DNA of 64,000 nt from Candidatus Portnoybacteria bacterium RIFCSPLOWO2_01_FULL_43_11. Lineage in GTDB: Bacteria; Patescibacteriota; Minisyncoccia; Portnoybacterales; UBA2143. Below are positions 33,943 through 41,326 of this stretch, piece after piece. Made by a program: the position numbers and the translations under genes. The stretch covers positions 13,054 to 77,053 of the forward strand of contig MHNE01000008.1 of the NCBI GenBank assembly GCA_001819605.1. The letters run 5' to 3'. Numbering within the stretch: the stretch's first letter is position 1; each line of letters begins with the position of its first letter. The notes beneath the pieces were generated by a model, which did not search any database, was not told the DNA's origin, and was given only the letters and a program-made list of their open reading frames with translations.

Positions 33943-35667
33943 ATGCCCTCCTCTGAAATAGAAATAATTCGTCATTCCTTAGCTCATGTTTTAGCGGCCG
34001 CGGTCCGGGAAATATTCTCCGGGACTAAATTTGGTATTGGCCCGGTTATTGAAAACGGGTTTTATTATGATTCTGACTTACCTATTCCCCTTACCCCGGA
34101 AGACCTGCCTAAGATAGAAAAGAAAATGAGAGAACTGATCAAAAAAAATATTGCCTTTGAGAAACAGAAAATCTCAAAAGAAGAAGCTAAAAAACTATTT
34201 AAAGATCAGCCCTATAAATTAGAACTCATCAATGAACTAAAAGAAAAAGAAGCAACTATCTATAAATCAGGAGATTTTATTGATTTGTGCCGCGGCCCTC
34301 ATATCAAATCAACTAAAGAAATCAATCTGGACGCTTTCAAAATAACTAAAATAGCCGGCGCTTACTGGCAAGGCGATGAAAAAAATCCAATGCTGACCAG
34401 AATTTATGGAGTGGCTTTTGACAATAAAAAAGATTTGGATAATTATTTAAAAAACCTTGAAGAAGCAGAAAAAAGAGACCACCGGCAACTGGGCCAAAAA
34501 TTGGACTTATTTCATATTGACGAAGAATTTGGGGCCGGCTTGCCGCTTTGGCACCCAAAGGGCGCTCTTTTAAGACAGATTATTGAAGACTACTGGATTG
34601 GTGAACATTTAAAAAACGGCTATGAATTATTAAGAACGCCTCATATTGCCCGCTTGGGCCTCTGGCAAAAATCGGGACACTGGGATTTTTATCGGGAAAA
34701 TATGTATTCGCCGATGGATATTGAAAATGAAAAGTATATTGTTAAGCCCATGAACTGTCCCGGACATATTTTAATTTATAAAACGCATATCAGAAGCTAC
34801 CGGGATTTGCCGCTTCGCTGGGCAGAATTAGGCACTGTTTATCGCTATGAACGTTCTGGGGTTTTGCACGGGCTTACGCGGGTGCGCGGTTTTACCCAAG
34901 ACGACGCTCATACTTTTTGCGCTCCGGAGCAACTCGGCCAAGAAATTGATTCCACTATTAAATTCGGCCTAAAAATGCTAAAAACTTTTGGTTTTAAAGA
35001 GTATGATATCTGTCTTTCAACGCGGCCGGAAAAATATGTAGGCGCTCTCAAAAACTGGGAAAAAGCTACCAAAGCGCTTGAATATGCTTTAAAAAAACAA
35101 GGGTTAAAATATCAGGTTGATCCGGGCGAAGGAGTTTTTTACGGACCAAAAATTGACATTAAAATTAAAGATTCTTTGGGCCGGGCCTGGCAATGCACTA
35201 CCATCCAAATTGATTTTAATCTGCCGGAAAAATTTGCCGTTGCTTATGTGAATCAAAAAGGTAAAAAACAACAGCCGATTATGATTCACCGCGCCTTACT
35301 CGGCTCCTTAGAACGTTTCACTGGAGTTTTAATTGAACACTACGCCGGCGCTTTTCCAGTTTGGCTTTCGCCGGTCCAAGCCTGGATTATTCCAATAGCC
35401 AACCGCCATAATAAATACGCTGATAAAGTCAATCGGCAACTGACGGCCCATAATTTACGACTGGAAATAAAAAATGAAAACGAAACGGTTTCAAAAAGAA
35501 TCCGCGAAGGCGAACTCCAAAAAATACCCTACATGCTGGTAGTCGGCGACAAAGAAGAAAAAGCCAAATCAGTCGGAGTCAGAGACAGGAAAAAAGGCGA
35601 CATTGGCATGATGAAAATTGAAAAATTTATAGAAAAAATCACTAAAGAAATAAAAAATAAAAAATAA
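33943..35667 (+). CDS. thrS: threonine--tRNA ligase (short form lacking the N-terminal TGS domain)
   Basis: Editing-domain start, class II motifs (FRYE, HRA..GS.ER), and the anticodon-binding domain. Confidence 0.9.
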   Translation: MPSSEIEIIRHSLAHVLAAAVREIFSGTKFGIGPVIENGFYYDSDLPIPLTPEDLPKIEKKMRELIKKNIAFEKQKISKEEAKKLFKDQPYKLELINELKEKEATIYKSGDFIDLCRGPHIKSTKEINLDAFKITKIAGAYWQGDEKNPMLTRIYGVAFDNKKDLDNYLKNLEEAEKRDHRQLGQKLDLFHIDEEFGAGLPLWHPKGALLRQIIEDYWIGEHLKNGYELLRTPHIARLGLWQKSGHWDFYRENMYSPMDIENEKYIVKPMNCPGHILIYKTHIRSYRDLPLRWAELGTVYRYERSGVLHGLTRVRGFTQDDAHTFCAPEQLGQEIDSTIKFGLKMLKTFGFKEYDICLSTRPEKYVGALKNWEKATKALEYALKKQGLKYQVDPGEGVFYGPKIDIKIKDSLGRAWQCTTIQIDFNLPEKFAVAYVNQKGKKQQPIMIHRALLGSLERFTGVLIEHYAGAFPVWLSPVQAWIIPIANRHNKYADKVNRQLTAHNLRLEIKNENETVSKRIREGELQKIPYMLVVGDKEEKAKSVGVRDRKKGDIGMMKIEKFIEKITKEIKNKK

Positions 35668-37238
35668 TGCCCATACTTTCTCAACCAACCGAAGAACTTA
35701 TCCAGGAATTTAAAAGATTTATTTTGACCAAGCCGGAAGAAGGCTCAACTATTCATGTTGACTACATTGCCAGCAAAGTAGCCAGTTTTTACGAACGGAT
35801 CAGAAAGATTTTAGATTATCAGGAAGAACATCTTCTTAGAAAAAATGCCATTGACCGCATGCTTAAAAGAAGATTAATTCTTCAGACAAATAATAAAGGC
35901 GGAATGGCCGAATCTCTAATCTGCGAACTAATCAGGGCCGGCTATCTGCCAAACGACGCCATTCCTGAAAGCGAAATCGGGGCCGTGGAATTAATTATCA
36001 GTAAATATGTATTCCTTATTGATGCTTCGGCTGATCTGCCTCAAAAACAAAGAGAAGGAACATTCAATTGGCTGATTAGCTTGGCCTCTTGCGAGATTGA
36101 AGAAAAATTAGCCCCCCCTCATAAAGACCAAGCCTTGGCTGATTATATGTACGCGGTAATCAAAGAAAGAATCGTTTTAAGAAATACGAATTTAAACCAG
36201 GATGAAAAAGATACGCAAGTCTTTATCGCCATTCAAAAAGCGCTTCTTCGAACTGATCGCGCTTTATTGAATTACCGGCTCCTTAAGTGGCACTATCCCG
36301 AATGGACTCAAACAGACCAGCAGTTTTTAACTGAAATAATCCCTCAAATCGCTTCTATAAAACTTGCCCTATCCCAAAAAATAGATCATCCTTTAGGGCC
36401 AAAATTCTTTAAAATCTGCAATCAATACAACACTCCTTATCTCGTTTTGGGCGATGTGCTTTTGGAAAATTCTGACGCCTTAAATCAGCCGGAAAGACTG
36501 GAAGATTTAATCAAAGAAGCCTATCAGGAAAGGTATAAACGTTCTAAAAATAAATTGCGCCGGGCCGCTGTTTTAAGCACTCTTTCTATTTTTGTGACTA
36601 AAATACTTTTGGCCTTGGCCATTGAAGTGCCCTTTGATCTTTATATCGCCCATCAGCTTATTCTTCTTAATCTCGGCATTAATATTCTCTTTCCTCCTCT
36701 TTTAATGTTTTTAATCGTTAAAAGCATCAAGCCGCCAAAAGAGGAAAACGCGCAAAAGGTCGTTTTGGAAGTAATGAAAATAACCTATCAGACAAAAACT
36801 CAAGACCAATATGAAATAAAAACAGTTGTTGAAAGGAACGTATTTTTAAGAGGAATAATTAACCTGTTCTATCTAATTACATTCCTCGTCACTTTTGGTT
36901 TAATTATTTGGGCGTTGGATAAACTAAATTTCAGTTGGCTAAGTATGGTTATTTTCCTTGTTTTTATCTCTTTAATCTGCTTTGCCGGCTTGAGAATCCG
37001 CCAACGTTCCAAAGAATTAAGCGTGGAAAAAGAAAAAGAGAGCGGCTGGGTCTTCTGGATTGAACTTTTCGCCTTGCCTTTAGTCCGCGTAGGCAAATGG
37101 CTGTCAAATCAATGGACGCGGTTTAACATATTAGTGGTTATTTTTGATTTAATTTTGGAAGTGCCATTTCAAATTTTTGTGCAATTTTTAGAAAATTGGC
37201 GCCGCTTTCTTAAGGAGAAAAAAGAAGAAATACAATAA
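35667..37238 (+). CDS. hypothetical protein with a soluble N-terminal domain and C-terminal TM helices, translationally coupled to thrS and atpB
   Basis: 523-aa ORF whose start overlaps the thrS stop and whose end overlaps the atpB start. Confidence 0.45.
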   Translation: MPILSQPTEELIQEFKRFILTKPEEGSTIHVDYIASKVASFYERIRKILDYQEEHLLRKNAIDRMLKRRLILQTNNKGGMAESLICELIRAGYLPNDAIPESEIGAVELIISKYVFLIDASADLPQKQREGTFNWLISLASCEIEEKLAPPHKDQALADYMYAVIKERIVLRNTNLNQDEKDTQVFIAIQKALLRTDRALLNYRLLKWHYPEWTQTDQQFLTEIIPQIASIKLALSQKIDHPLGPKFFKICNQYNTPYLVLGDVLLENSDALNQPERLEDLIKEAYQERYKRSKNKLRRAAVLSTLSIFVTKILLALAIEVPFDLYIAHQLILLNLGINILFPPLLMFLIVKSIKPPKEENAQKVVLEVMKITYQTKTQDQYEIKTVVERNVFLRGIINLFYLITFLVTFGLIIWALDKLNFSWLSMVIFLVFISLICFAGLRIRQRSKELSVEKEKESGWVFWIELFALPLVRVGKWLSNQWTRFNILVVIFDLILEVPFQIFVQFLENWRRFLKEKKEEIQ

Positions 37239-38331: not shown

Positions 38332-38838
38332 ATGGAACTCTTACTGGAAAAACTTGGCCTTGAGCCGCATATTCTTCTTGCTCAAATAATTAATTTTTTG
38401 ATTCTAATTTTTGTTTTGCGCAGATTTCTATACAAACCTTTAATTAAATTTTTAGACAAAAGAAAAGACATTATTGAAAAAGGATTAAATGACGCTCAAA
38501 AAGCCAAAGAGGAATTAAGTAAAATCCAGACTATAAAAGAAGAAAAAATTATTGAGGGTGAAAGAGAAGCTGATAAAATCATAGAAAAATCCAAAAAAAC
38601 GGCCGAACAAAAAAGCGGCTTGATTTTAAAAGAAACGCAGGAAAAATCCGAAGGCATAATCAAAGAAGCGAAACAAATGGCCGAAGAAGAAAAAAAGGAA
38701 GCCAAGCAAAAACTCAAAGAAGAAATTCGCGATTTGGTCTTTCTCGTCTCTTCCAAAATTTTGGAAAAAAATATCGGCCAGAAAGAAAATGAAGAGATTA
38801 TAAATCAGCAATTGAATTTATTGAATAAGAAAGTTTAA
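38332..38838 (+). CDS. atpF: ATP synthase F0 subunit b
   Basis: N-terminal TM followed by a long charged coiled-coil; position in the operon. Confidence 0.8.
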   Translation: MELLLEKLGLEPHILLAQIINFLILIFVLRRFLYKPLIKFLDKRKDIIEKGLNDAQKAKEELSKIQTIKEEKIIEGEREADKIIEKSKKTAEQKSGLILKETQEKSEGIIKEAKQMAEEEKKEAKQKLKEEIRDLVFLVSSKILEKNIGQKENEEIINQQLNLLNKKV

Positions 38839-38853
38839 TTCATATTTTTTACT

Positions 38854-38934
38854 ATGCCCATCAAAGAATTTTTTAGACCGACAAATAAATCAACTTTATA
38901 TTGGCTCATTTTGGGAGCGGTGGTTAAATTTTAA
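38854..38934 (+). pseudogene. 26-codon remnant duplicating the 5' end of the gene at 40113 (part of the 63-bp direct repeat 38863-38925 = 40122-40184)
   Basis: 62/63-nt identity: aaagaattttttagaccgacaaataaatcaactttatattggctcattttgggag[c/t]ggtggtt. Confidence 0.7.
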
Positions 38935-39037
38935 ATTGTAATTTTTAACTTTTCCACTCTGCTAGTTTTTAAATTTACTGTTTCATTTTTTGTTTCAAAA
39001 TGATACAATTACGAATAATATATGATACAATTAAATC

Positions 39038-40111
39038 ATGGAAAAAGTTTATAAATTAACTAAACGACAACTAAATATCCTTGAATTTATCAAAAAAAAT
39101 GGTGGAGCAAGCAATCAGGAAATTAAAAACCGCCTTAAAGAAACTTTTGAAGACATCTCAAGAATTACAATAGTCCGCGACATTAATCTCCTTTTAAAAA
39201 ATAAGCTAATAGATAGAAAGGGTAAGGGAAGAAATGTCCGCTATGAAGAATTTATAAAAAGCGCGGTTTTAGCTTATTTTGATGTTGAGGAATATTTTAA
39301 AAAAGGGCCAGATGAAAGAAAGTTGACTTTTGAATATTTTAATTTTAGGATATTTAGCCAGTTTAAGGAAATTTTCACAGAAGAAGAACTAAAAAATTTA
39401 AAGACGCTAAACGACGGCTACAAAAAAAGAATCAAGAAACTATCGCCCGCGATTTTAAAAAAAGAGTTTGAAAGATTAACCATTGAATTAAGCTGGAAAT
39501 CATCTCAAATTGAAGGAAATACCTACTCTTTGATAGATACGGAGATTCTTATAAAAGAACATAAAGAAGCTGAAGGTCATAAAAAAGAAGAAGCGATAAT
39601 GATTTTAAACCATAAAAAAGCGCTGGATTATATTCTAAACAAAAAAAGCGACTTTAAAAAAATAAATCTGCGAAAAATTGAAAACATACAAAATTTAATA
39701 GTTGACAATCTTGGAATATCAAAAGGAATTAGGAAAAAACTGGTTGGAATCGTGGGGACAAGATACAAGCCGTTAGACAATGAATATCAAATCAAAGAAG
39801 CCTTAGAAAAAATGATAAAAATTATAAACAATTTTAAAGAACCGTTTTCTAAGGCGCTCGCGGCGATTCTGATGATTTCATATATCCAGCCGTTTGAAGA
39901 CGGCAATAAACGAACCGCTCGGCTTTTAGGCGACGCTTTGCTTTTAGCTTACGGCGCCTGTCCCCTTTCTTTCAGAAGCGTTAATGAAACGGACTACAAG
40001 AAAGCGGTAATTATTTTTTACGAACAGAATAGCGCGAGATTTTTCAAAGAATTATTCATCCAGCAATTTGAATTCGCAATTAAAAACTATTTTCTGTTAG
40101 AAAATCAATAA
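39038..40111 (+). CDS. HTH (winged-helix, DeoR-like) - Fic/DOC family protein with a degenerate Fic motif (QPFEDGNKRTAR)
   Basis: N-terminal HTH (LNILEFIKKNGGASNQEI...ITIVRDINLL). C-terminus IQPFEDGNKRTAR corresponds to the canonical HPFx(D/E)GNGRxxR with H->Q and G->K. Confidence 0.7.
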   Translation: MEKVYKLTKRQLNILEFIKKNGGASNQEIKNRLKETFEDISRITIVRDINLLLKNKLIDRKGKGRNVRYEEFIKSAVLAYFDVEEYFKKGPDERKLTFEYFNFRIFSQFKEIFTEEELKNLKTLNDGYKKRIKKLSPAILKKEFERLTIELSWKSSQIEGNTYSLIDTEILIKEHKEAEGHKKEEAIMILNHKKALDYILNKKSDFKKINLRKIENIQNLIVDNLGISKGIRKKLVGIVGTRYKPLDNEYQIKEALEKMIKIINNFKEPFSKALAAILMISYIQPFEDGNKRTARLLGDALLLAYGACPLSFRSVNETDYKKAVIIFYEQNSARFFKELFIQQFEFAIKNYFLLENQ

Positions 40112-40112
40112 T

Positions 40113-40802
40113 ATGAATCTAAAAGAATTTTTTAGACCGACAAATAAATCAACTTTATATTGGCTCATTTTGGGAGTGGTGGTTTTGGTTGCGGGAGGAG
40201 TAATTTGGTGGAGTTGGAATATAACTTCAAAAATCACTGATAGTGAACCTTTGGTTATTCCGAAAACAGAACTCAAAAATAATCAACCTATTGACACTTC
40301 AACTTGGAAAACTTATCGGAATGAGAAGTATGGGTTTGAGGTAAAATATCCGGAAGATTTCACAATTAACGAACGTCTTGGCGGTGGAGAGCAAAATCCA
40401 AACGCCGTTTACTTTAGATCAAAAAGCGATGATTTTTTTATAAAGATTGATAATGGTTATCAAGAGGTAGATCTACTTCCTTTCAAAGACTATGCTATGC
40501 AAATATCTAAAAATGCTTGCGACGCAGATGGTCCAAGCAGTTCTATGCATTGTGAAGAGATATCCGAACTTTCTCCTTTTAATGACATTCGAGTGGCACC
40601 AGCTTATGAAATTTATTTGAATGAAATTATACAAATGCGGGGCAAAAGTAATACACAAAGAACAAAAGGACCAATCATAGCCATCGACATAAGTATTCAC
40701 ACACAAGGTTTGACTAGAGGATTATTTATAAATTTACAAGGTAGCTCTAATAATGAAGAGATGATTAAAAAAATAGCTGCTACCTTTAAATTTATAGAAT
40801 AA
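40113..40802 (+). CDS. hypothetical secreted or membrane-anchored protein (N-terminal TM/signal anchor)
   Basis: 229 aa; hydrophobic segment LYWLILGVVVLVAGGVIWW followed by a soluble domain containing Cys residues. Confidence 0.5.
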   Translation: MNLKEFFRPTNKSTLYWLILGVVVLVAGGVIWWSWNITSKITDSEPLVIPKTELKNNQPIDTSTWKTYRNEKYGFEVKYPEDFTINERLGGGEQNPNAVYFRSKSDDFFIKIDNGYQEVDLLPFKDYAMQISKNACDADGPSSSMHCEEISELSPFNDIRVAPAYEIYLNEIIQMRGKSNTQRTKGPIIAIDISIHTQGLTRGLFINLQGSSNNEEMIKKIAATFKFIE

Positions 40803-40879
40803 TTTTTACCTTGTTAAATAGTCGCAAAGCGAATTTAACGGGGTGAATTTTAAAATTATTGGTTACTCGTCACTTATTT

Positions 40880-41326
40880 ATGCGATACACTTCAAAACAA
40901 TACGCCAAAGCGCTTTGGGAAGTTTGGGAGGAAAAATCGCCGGATAAAAGAACGGCGGTTTTGGGCAGGTTTATAAAACTTCTGAAAAAACAAAGGGCGA
41001 TGAAAAAACTGGACTTTATTATCCAAGAGCTTGAAAAAATTTATTTAATAAAGAATAATTTATTAAAAGCCGGAATAACAGCCCCTTTCCCGCCTTCTAA
41101 GATATCGCTTGAACGGATTAAAAAACTTGTCCCGCATCTTTTTACGGCACAGCAAAAAGGTGCGGGATTTATTTCTTCTTTTTATAAACATCGGCCTGAT
41201 AAAATTATTTTAGAACAAAAAATTGATAAAAATCTAATCGGCGGATTTCAAATTAAAGTAAACGATTATTTAATAGACGGGAGCGTTAGAAATATGTTGG
41301 TAAAATTAAAAAAAACTAATCTATGA
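40880..41326 (+). CDS. atpH: ATP synthase F1 delta subunit (OSCP)
   Basis: YAKALWEV N-terminus and C-terminal [10 protein letters not shown] pattern; lies immediately upstream of atpA. Confidence 0.7.

Follow-up and report, generated by a model that had tools for sequence, protein, structure and literature searches.

What can a Fic-domain protein do that carries glutamine (Gln) in place of the catalytic histidine (His), is fused to a putative DNA-binding domain, and is encoded in the midst of an ATP synthase operon? This question is raised by the open reading frame (ORF) at 39038–40111 on the forward strand of a 64,000-nucleotide (nt) stretch of Candidatus Portnoybacteria bacterium RIFCSPLOWO2_01_FULL_43_11 (contig MHNE01000008.1), herein called the window. 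Its product of 357 amino acids (aa) was identified by the homolog search as identical to a hypothetical protein from a Candidatus Portnoybacteria metagenome-assembled genome. It is herein referred to as the wHTH-Fic(Q/K) protein—after its N-terminal winged helix-turn-helix (wHTH) and the two exchanges in its Fic motif, namely Gln for the catalytic His and lysine (Lys) for the second glycine (Gly). Taken as a whole, the evidence favors, with reasonable though far from full confidence, a self-contained, horizontally mobile, single-gene cassette that represses itself, lies in the atp operon as the scar of an insertion, and may encode a latent Fic effector. The features of the window from atpF to atpH are all located on the forward strand.

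Fic enzymes are defined by their catalytic His, which deprotonates the acceptor hydroxyl; an Asp or Glu of the motif binds Mg2+, and the GNG(R) turn together with Arg residues binds phosphates. Other Fido proteins without the motif, such as AvrB, are reported to use different nucleotide-linked donors. The sequence-only reading had noted that both the His and the second Gly are replaced in the true Fic loop, and this is borne out. Pfam Fic/DOC (PF02661) matches aa 210–302 with E = 1.2e-11 and 45.7 bits, above the gathering cut-off of 24, and the translation places the motif QPFEDGNKRTAR at aa 284–295 (nt 39887–39922). The nearest solved relatives by sequence are chains of human FICD. When the query segment YIQPFEDGNKRTARLL is aligned on FICD YIHPFIDGNGRTSRLL, Q284 falls into the column of His363 (YI-H-PFIDGNGRTSR in FICD) and K291 into that of the second Gly; the FICD H363A trap mutant, contained in the same match list, shows Ala in the Q284 column. 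The active-site loop, hence, reads Q284-P-F-E-D288-G-N290-K291-R292-T-A-R295. Besides the His-to-Gln exchange, the Gly-to-K291 exchange is the sole change within the motif, and F286, D288, G289, N290, R292, and R295 are invariant or nearly so in the family. A second, His-bearing Fic motif was not found in the protein (regular expressions and alignments).

An AlphaFold2 (AF2) model, calculated from 30 homologs, reaches a predicted local distance difference test score (pLDDT) of 89.5 and a predicted template modeling score (pTM) of 0.85. It consists of a winged helix of three helices and two strands (aa 9–71), a helical linker, and the Fic core. Foldseek matches it in the Protein Data Bank (PDB) to FICD, Caenorhabditis elegans FIC-1, BtFic (3CUC), SoFic, CccR (7XUX), and Coxiella burnetii Fic2 (CbFic2), all with a probability of 1.00, with FICD, FIC-1, BtFic, and SoFic at the top; Doc is not among the PDB matches of the model. 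The N-terminal wHTH, which the sequence-only reading had also proposed, extends over aa 5–72 (nt 39050–39253) and shows weak Pfam matches at or near the cut-off (FUR, Penicillinase_R), as well as profile matches to BlaI, AspA, and the C-terminal wHTH of Coxiella Fic2. Its putative recognition helix S41-R42-I43-T44-x-x-R47 is encoded by nt 39158–39178. Two further elements place the Fic core. First, the query segment SSQIEGNT aligns on FICD TVAIEGNT, whereby E159 coincides with the inhibitory Glu234, which in FICD is required for deAMPylation. The motif S155-S-Q-I-E159-G160 (nt 39500–39517) thus conforms to the [ST]xxxE[GN] pattern of class II Fic proteins, located in the same chain and N-terminal to the Fic core. 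Second, a β-bridge between residues 231 and 244 of the AF2 model marks the flap, a β-hairpin region at aa 231–245 (IRKKLVGIVGTRYKP, nt 39728–39772), in which R232, G237, G240, and P245 are invariant. The fold can, hence, be taken as shown or strongly inferred from model and alignment to be that of a FICD-type class II Fic protein with an intramolecular inhibitory Glu and a flap.

Is the exchange of the catalytic His a peculiarity of this protein or the rule of a family? A word-indexed homolog search yielded at least 8000 candidates, and an exhaustive profile search through 1.84 billion representatives at 50% identity returned 531 clusters at E ≤ 1e-30; the motif was read in the 120 closest homologs and in the best 150 cluster representatives. 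All 120 homologs among those listed (63–95% identical) show Q-[PMS]-F-x-D-G-N-K-R-x-x-R together with S-S-x-[IML]-E-G. Among the best 150 clusters, Gln and Lys are present in 107 of the 109 motif-bearing representatives and His in none, and the inhibitory-helix motif is found in essentially all homologs read. Distant members of approximately 440–470 aa retain both residues, with the first Gly replaced by V, I, or L, and the same holds for Gln and Lys in plasmid-borne copies from cultured Cereibacter, Aromatoleum, Rhizobium, and Bacteroides, which are annotated only as 'Fic family protein'. Ranked by similarity, the homologs with the Q/K variant form a coherent and very large sequence family, and the recurrence of Gln and Lys among them goes far beyond what chance would give. 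The wHTH is found throughout, from members in the Candidate Phyla Radiation (CPR) to proteobacterial members of approximately 460 aa, and Pfam detects no extra domains in the longer members. A scan of one genome per species, with the search limited to Q-type sequences, found the family in at least 569 species genomes; it is especially common in CPR, and carriers outside CPR include Gastranaerophilales, rumen Alphaproteobacteria, Holosporaceae, Endomicrobium, Akkermansia, and Synergistaceae.

The alignment of 30 homologs has a mean column identity of 71% and approximately 90 invariant columns, among them E159, Q284, D288, G289, N290, K291, R292, R295, and several flap residues. Over 85 loci, the Gln is encoded by CAG 49 times and by CAA 36 times, and never by CAT or CAC, with a His codon being a single transversion away. 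K291 likewise uses both of its codons (AAA 51, AAG 34), as does the inhibitory Glu. Since both Gln codons are used and a His codon never is, Gln itself is under purifying selection. A merely dead enzyme would hardly keep this Gln and all phosphate-binding and metal-binding residues so strictly conserved. From the comparison of sequences, we regard it as established that the pocket is intact except for the base, that conservation extends to the inhibitory Glu and the flap, and that Gln and Lys are selected. A decaying pseudogene, the remnant of a Fic toxin, would account for the loss of the catalytic His, and a few family members with further degraded motifs (P0178, P0236, P0257, and P0268) would fit it as well. 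The intact ORF, the 71% mean column identity across phyla, the invariant columns, and the synonymous variation reject this explanation, the probability of which is negligible. One representative, P0207 (259 aa), contains two Fic motifs, the Y-type canonical-like YPFADGNGRVGR and the Q-type IQPFGDGKKRISR, and could stem from a chimeric assembly or from the fusion of two Fic types.

The motif class as such has been known in silico since 2015, and the protein of the window is a member of this uncharacterized variant. In the classification of Khater and Mohanty 2015 (Sci Rep 5:10804), the fifth motif of Fic/Doc proteins is Qx[F|Y]x[D|E][G|V]NKR; its 45 sequences, usually of single-domain proteins, were placed in the Doc subfamily as 'clade D2', and the authors considered this class perhaps not catalytically dead, with selection implying a function. 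The QPFEDGNKR of the window fits this consensus with Gln for His and Lys at the second Gly. The family described here differs from clade D2 by being orders of magnitude larger, FICD-like class II, and equipped with the wHTH throughout, and the single-domain, Doc-like architecture is not found in the window protein, which carries the N-terminal wHTH. The literature search found no experimental work on the clade D2 motif class and nothing relevant on Fic proteins in CPR/Patescibacteria. The placement in the Doc subfamily is rejected by the PDB profile search and by the fold: with the family profile, FICD is found at 1.6e-12, Doc chains are absent from the matches at E ≤ 10, and the match to a Doc-like PHROG family is weak (E = 0.009). 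Doc of the phage P1 Phd/Doc system, with the motif HxFx(D/N)(A/G)NKR, shares with the family the Lys at the second Gly and the stretch NKRTA. However, Doc still has the His, and neither flap nor inhibitory helix nor final Arg is present in this protein of approximately 125 aa, which is paired with the antitoxin Phd. In Doc, the Lys at this position reportedly goes along with an inverted binding of ATP and with phosphoryl transfer, that is, kinase chemistry. Because of the inhibitory helix, the flap, the final Arg, and the FICD match, the family is assigned to class II Fic proteins that have converged on, or borrowed, the Lys of Doc. With FICD/HYPE, FIC-1, BtFic (3CUC), and SoFic (3EQX), it has the N-terminal [ST]xxxE[GN] inhibitory helix, the flap, and the motif loop in common. 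These class II AMPylases differ in their HPFxDGNGRxxR motif, in having TPR domains or a C-terminal wHTH, and in being only approximately 19–21% identical.

It is reasonable to conclude that the protein is not a conventional AMPylase, since AMP transfer would be unlikely without a general base. An AMPylase or deAMPylase of weak or specialized activity, with Gln itself or another residue such as H181 or H192 as substitute base, appears improbable. Such an activity would agree with the invariance of the inhibitory Glu, which FICD-type deAMPylation needs, and Khater and Mohanty 2015 cite a residual activity of IbpA His-to-Ala and a His-to-Gln alcohol dehydrogenase. It is opposed by the inactivity of the His mutants of VopS, CccR, and FICD and by the nature of the second exchange, since in Doc it is Gly to Lys that turns the nucleotide around and changes the chemistry. 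Moreover, H181 and H192 align to the dimer-relay helix of FICD and not to its active site.

If not by conventional AMPylation, by which means does the protein act? The region upstream of the gene supports the proposal of the sequence-only reading that it is a DNA-binding regulator by virtue of its N-terminal domain, herein through a putative operator composed of a palindrome and a direct repeat and through its covariation with the protein. In the window, the order before the start codon is TTACTGTTTCA-T-TTTTTGTTTCA-AAA-TGATACAATTA-N11-TGATACAATTA-N4-ATG. The two reverse half-sites TTACTGTTTCA and TTTTTGTTTCA (38975–38997) each agree with the reverse complement of the box at 8 of 11 positions. 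The first forward box TGATACAATTA (39001–39011) comprises an extended −10-like element TG-n-TACAAT, and the second TGATACAATTA (39023–39033) is spaced 22 nt from the first and separated from the start codon by 4 nt; an exact 12-mer, ATGATACAATTA, is present twice with the same spacing of 22 nt. The half-site TTTTTGTTTCA and the box at 39001 form a palindrome with a gap of 3 nt. This arrangement recurs across the family. A repeated 10-mer (at least 9 of 10 positions) within 90 nt before the ATG is present in 48 of 83 loci as opposed to 11 of 240 control windows, with a spacing of exactly 22 nt in 46 of these 48 loci, and a palindromic partner (at least 7 of 9, gap 3–4 nt) accompanies the box in 51 of the 72 loci with a scorable box pair. 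A −35-like hexamer (at least 4 of 6) is situated 16–18 nt upstream of the TAC[AG]AT in the first forward box in 39 of 72 loci, versus 118 of 850 in the null. By this placement, the palindrome is located between −35 and −10, and the last box lies just downstream of the likely start of transcription.

The sequence of the box varies with that of the recognition helix. S-R-[IV]-T pairs with TGATACAAT, S-K-x-T with TGATACGAT, S-R-F-[ST] and D-R-T-T with TGCTACAAT, P-R-I-T with TGATATGAT, and [RK]-M-T with TGTTAC[AG]AT, and the GC-rich Cereibacter copy possesses GATCG[TC]GACAT repeats. Residue 42 (R/K) covaries with base 7 of the box (A/G) at 41/5 versus 4/20 (Fisher p = 2e-9, uncorrected for phylogeny); M43 goes with T in five of five loci and F43 with C in three of four. 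In the 64-kb window, no operator box was found beyond the two forward ones, except for a single match with one mismatch, which is at chance level, and the upstream region contains no known RNA element in Rfam at E ≤ 1. Most likely, the N-terminal wHTH binds the four half-sites, two reverse and two forward; bound there, over its own promoter, the protein would repress its own expression. The confinement of the box to this promoter is the signature of a self-contained autorepressor, the predicted binding of which has strong comparative support from the conserved operator, its overlap with the promoter, and the protein–DNA covariation.

Why, then, is this gene located in an ATP synthase operon? 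The sequence-only reading had placed it in this operon, and physically it sits between atpF and atpH. The gene atpF, encoding the b subunit (38332–38838; Pfam ATP-synt_B, E = 1.1e-22), precedes it; a gene for a 229-aa protein comes next (40113–40802), and with atpH, encoding the δ subunit (40859–41326; Pfam OSCP, E = 1.9e-14), the host operon resumes. The 229-aa protein has an N-terminal transmembrane segment and a weak PsbP_2 match and belongs to a large paralog family of CPR, from which 414 distant relatives, none of them close, were retrieved. The Fic gene and its upstream region are flanked by a direct repeat of 76 nt. Its upstream copy (38850–38925) is 91% identical to the downstream copy (40109–40184), with one mismatch in a core of 63 nt. 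The upstream copy, beginning shortly after atpF, amounts to a stub of 26 codons (ORF 38854–38934, 15 nt after atpF, MPIKEFFRPTNKSTLYWLILGAVVKF followed by a stop codon). The downstream copy starts from the Fic stop codon and holds the working start of the 229-aa gene, which reads MNLKEFFRPTNKSTLYWLILGVVV. Judging by this repeat, the stub at 38850–38925 is what originally served as the start of the 229-aa gene and has been displaced. Between the stub and the operator, the left part of the inserted DNA (38926–38974) is not conserved between cassettes, the nucleotide homology of which begins at approximately 38982. The G+C content of the cassette is 31%, compared with 39% for the window.

The nearest relative, L177, has a Fic gene of 87% protein identity at the same site, between an atpF and an atpH that are 82% and 80% identical to those of the window. 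There, the stub persists as a decayed remnant, and the 229-aa gene is gone. Together with the repeat in the window, this remnant speaks for an ancestral order of atpF, 229-aa gene, and atpH. The cassette would, hence, have entered at approximately codon 24 of the 229-aa gene before the lineages of the window and L177 split. Because only L177 shares the site, and because the flanking duplication marks an insertion, the position in the atp operon is to be read as a scar and not as a functional link. The gene lies inside an atp operon in none of the 79 loci fetched; two loci have atp genes at a distance of 2–8 kb on the other strand. The connection to ATP synthase that the sequence-only reading had implied is, therefore, not sustained: the context is found in none of 78 other genomes, the 76-nt duplication surrounds the gene, and boxes elsewhere do not exceed chance. 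The idea that the protein is a regulator or accessory factor of the operon could still appeal to the position between atpF and atpH, with no terminator-like site predicted between the two genes on either side of the cassette, to the common arrangement in L177, and to incidental effects of a bound repressor or of the cassette promoter on the expression of atpHAGDC. Equally close cassettes that adjoin rplY and other genes, the duplication, and the absence of operator boxes elsewhere in the window leave it a very slim chance. Transcripts of the atp operon probably run on through the cassette, the promoter of which may add to the expression of the 229-aa gene and of atpHAGDC.

The same picture of a moving unit emerges from the other loci. 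Cassettes that are 80–87% identical occupy four different contexts: besides the site in the atp operon, there is the L084 copy (83%), which is located after rplY, and those of L178 (84%) and L179 (80%) are found in yet other surroundings. Between cassettes of different contexts, nucleotide homology covers what corresponds to approximately 38982 to approximately 40093 of the window—operator, promoter, and ORF. The all-versus-all clustering of neighboring ORFs in 79 loci revealed no family present in more than six loci; therefore, the gene has no partner, and a conserved partner or antitoxin gene is rejected. Likewise, an adjacent antitoxin as in FicTA-type modules is missing, and the inhibitory helix resides in cis. 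For the flanks, 400 nt upstream were locally aligned with 400 nt downstream and compared with approximately 400 scores of mismatched flanks as null, with other genes of 250–500 aa from the same loci as controls. Repeats flank the cassette in 11 of 69 loci with full flanks, as opposed to 7 of 209 control genes (odds ratio 5.5, p = 8e-4), and all 11 score above every mismatched-flank null. Relative to the stop codon, the start of the downstream copy falls at −3 to +32 nt in 8 of the 11 loci; the upstream copy ends 48–188 nt before the ATG, and the length of the duplications varies from 28 to 240 nt. Among the duplicated targets are fpg, of which the first 13 codons are repeated (L042), and a GT2 glycosyltransferase gene, repeated at its start (L004 and L007); others are terminator-like hairpins. 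Integration of the tRNA-targeted integrase type is rejected, given that no duplicated target is a tRNA gene, and so is carriage by phages, since 2.9 million viral contigs contained no more than 10 matches, all of them distant.

How the cassette moves is less apparent. No recombinase or transposase gene is contained in the 1.1-kb unit; terminal inverted repeats were not found either, nor was a box resembling the operator at its right end. The unit thus shows none of the marks of an insertion sequence or transposon—transposase, terminal inverted repeats, and a short duplication of fixed length. One might suppose that the wHTH-Fic(Q/K) protein mobilizes its own cassette by binding the left end and engaging the Fic pocket in the breakage and joining of DNA. 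A one-gene unit without recombinase around which target duplications are enriched, a conserved left boundary that coincides with the predicted protein-binding sites, and a right end nearly fixed at the stop codon as opposed to a variable left end would all suit this scheme. Against it stand the right end devoid of box and inverted repeat, duplications of 28–240 nt that match no known transposase, and genes for a DUF3800 protein and an NYN-ASCH nuclease with the same kind of flanks; to our knowledge, a Fic protein acting on DNA has no precedent. Self-mobilization is, hence, very improbable. The DUF3800 and NYN-ASCH genes (L012:6464-7270 and L070:2735-3604, respectively), both accessory cargo, are the strongest controls with repeat flanks. 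Since such repeats surround other accessory genes as well, the mechanism of mobility is not specific to the Fic cassette. Insertion with target duplication may be a general entry route of accessory genes into these compact genomes, with Fic cassettes as frequent users.

In the favored reading, these elements would combine as follows. A cassette of approximately 1.1 kb would consist of its own operator and promoter and the wHTH-Fic(Q/K) ORF, with no partner gene. The wHTH would bind the half-sites—the palindrome between −35 and −10 and the box before the start codon—and thereby repress the promoter. In the window, a gene for a small membrane protein, situated between atpF and atpH, would have received the cassette in its 5′ end, whereby the first approximately 24 codons of this target gene would have been duplicated and an intact copy rebuilt directly after the Fic stop codon. 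The Fic domain would be no AMPylase, yet would bind a Mg–nucleotide or phosphate ligand, and the protein would be the latent effector of a conflict-type module (defense or addiction, like SoFic or CccR), silenced by autorepression and by the inhibitory Glu. It could act by a chemistry that needs no base, with a donor inverted as in Doc, as the Lys suggests, and transfer to an already anionic acceptor. Alternatively, it could act by tight, ligand-dependent binding and sequestration of a universal target. The fold with its fixed exchanges, the autorepression via the half-sites, the lack of a partner gene, and the insertion are shown or strongly suggested by comparison. The last part, a latent conflict-type effector that does not AMPylate, is by itself tentative, and we would put it somewhat below an even chance.

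Three characterized proteins serve as points of reference. CccR of Yersinia pseudotuberculosis (PDB 7XUX) is likewise a fusion of Fic and HTH. As an experimentally studied precedent, it represses its own promoter via a palindrome located between −35 and −10, besides acting as an effector, and it is found among the structural as well as the sequence matches. It differs by its GNGR motif and its C-terminal HTH; its canonical His192 is essential, it AMPylates FtsZ, and it is secreted by the type VI secretion system (Nat Commun 2022). SoFic, which serves in antiphage defense, resembles the family as a single-gene Fic system with a wHTH. It differs by the canonical His, by its reported abortive infection based on AMPylation, and by the C-terminal position of the wHTH. 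CbFic2 (PDB 8CIL) possesses a homologous wHTH, with query aa 3–69 matching aa 302–370 of its chain. In this host-targeted effector, DNA binding controls the state of the Fic domain, which acts as AMPylase and deAMPylase on histone H3; its His is canonical and its HTH C-terminal. The best PADLOC matches of the family are SoFic and the candidate system PDC-S04 (4e-18 and 9e-17), and an unannotated PHROG family, phrog_11900, is matched with E = 1.5e-28. These matches agree with a role in conflict but do not count as evidence for one. In 4 of 79 loci, AbiEi/AbiEii-like toxin–antitoxin pairs are found within 5 kb of the Fic cassette (e.g., L029:5320-6610), and on proteobacterial plasmids (L081–L083), the family adjoins integrases as well as ParDE, HipA, and RES-Xre modules.

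The strongest competitor of this reading, itself rather unlikely, is a pure pseudo-enzyme, in which the Fic domain would serve as a nucleotide or metabolite sensor that tunes the wHTH, making the protein a ligand-gated transcription factor, possibly with further targets in the host. The missing catalytic base along with the retention of all ligand-binding residues is what such a sensor would show, DNA binding is strongly supported by comparison, and CbFic2 demonstrates that DNA binding and Fic state can be coupled. But a mobile gene that regulates nothing except itself would have no selectable function. In addition, the flap, being the element on which targets dock, is as conserved as the pocket; no further box exceeds chance in the 64-kb window; and the specificity of the operator drifts along with the protein, as is typical of self-contained modules and not of regulators of a host regulon. 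An effector is, thus, preferred over a pure sensor because a self-repressing mobile gene would otherwise lack a selectable phenotype, because tight autorepression is typical of toxic or conflict-related products, and because the joint drift of operator and protein argues against a host regulon.

A bolder version holds that Q/K Fic proteins are active enzymes with a new Fido chemistry, that is, a Doc-like inverted donor and a base-free transfer, for instance to a carboxylate or phosphate group, or onto or inside nucleic acid. They would be encoded by a one-gene, self-repressing element that spreads through CPR with long target duplications; at the extreme, the protein would take part in the insertion. 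This version is a long shot. If true, the cassettes would be among the smallest autonomous conflict elements known.

Several points weigh against the favored reading. The ligand binding, the DNA binding, and the toxicity of the family are, all three, what we infer. A His-to-Gln exchange normally abolishes Fic catalysis, and a protein that only binds or senses would fit the conservation equally well; there is also the possibility that another residue, e.g., the invariant H181 or H192, reaches the active site. The statistics of covariation and repeats ignore shared ancestry, with L004 and L007 probably being one event and L059 and L064 likewise. The PADLOC matches to SoFic and PDC-S04 reflect generic Fic similarity. 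Flanking repeats are present in only 16% of loci and occur around other accessory genes too, CPR loci are mostly situated among housekeeping genes and not in recognizable defense islands, and the rarity of the family on viral contigs has been given above. Finally, the repeat in the window is 98% identical even though the insertion predates the split from L177: the copies 38862–38925 and 40121–40184 differ at one base, whereas the cassette of L177 has a nucleotide identity of 83%. This suggests gene conversion between the copies or a constraint on the stub ORF. An empty site was not found via relatives of the 229-aa gene on metagenome contigs, the best of which is 32% identical.

What appears to be new relative to the in silico motif class of 2015 is the reassignment to class II Fic proteins with an obligatory N-terminal wHTH, a conserved operator that covaries with the recognition helix, and a mobile one-gene cassette with long target duplications. 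The family comprises hundreds of clusters at 50% identity and is at least as diverse as many enzyme families. Its pocket residues, kept over long times with Gln and Lys fixed, imply a function beyond the known repertoire of AMPylation, phosphocholination, and kinase activity. The system has become tractable: the operator is defined, a swap of specificity is predicted for R42K combined with A to G at box base 7, and the compact cassette along with the point mutants Q284H, K291G, and E159G lends itself to experiments. A false lead, that of an ATP synthase regulator, is removed. For the host genomes, the locus illustrates a mode of accessory-gene gain in which insertion occurs in the 5′ end of a gene and a duplication rebuilds it, which leaves core operons transcriptionally threaded through foreign, self-regulated DNA.

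The surrounding atp genes offer some observations of their own. The ORF of atpH as listed begins with TTG, and the atpH of L177 starts at MKYTSKQY, which corresponds to an internal Met of the window ORF; therefore, the true start in the window is probably the ATG at approximately 40880. The Pfam OSCP match covers only model positions 64–170, which suggests a short or divergent N terminus of the δ subunit. A relative of the 229-aa gene (49% identical over a short stretch) is located in another CPR atp operon, between atpA and atpG (L150:1426-6812), so that small membrane-anchored proteins of this paralog family may recurrently be found inside such operons. At the upstream end of the operon, 35667–37238 encodes a multipass membrane protein of 523 aa with only a weak DUF5685 match. 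The last base of the thrS ORF is also the first of its gene, the stop codon of which overlaps the start codon of atpB (37238); in the usual position of atpI, it looks translationally coupled to the atp operon.

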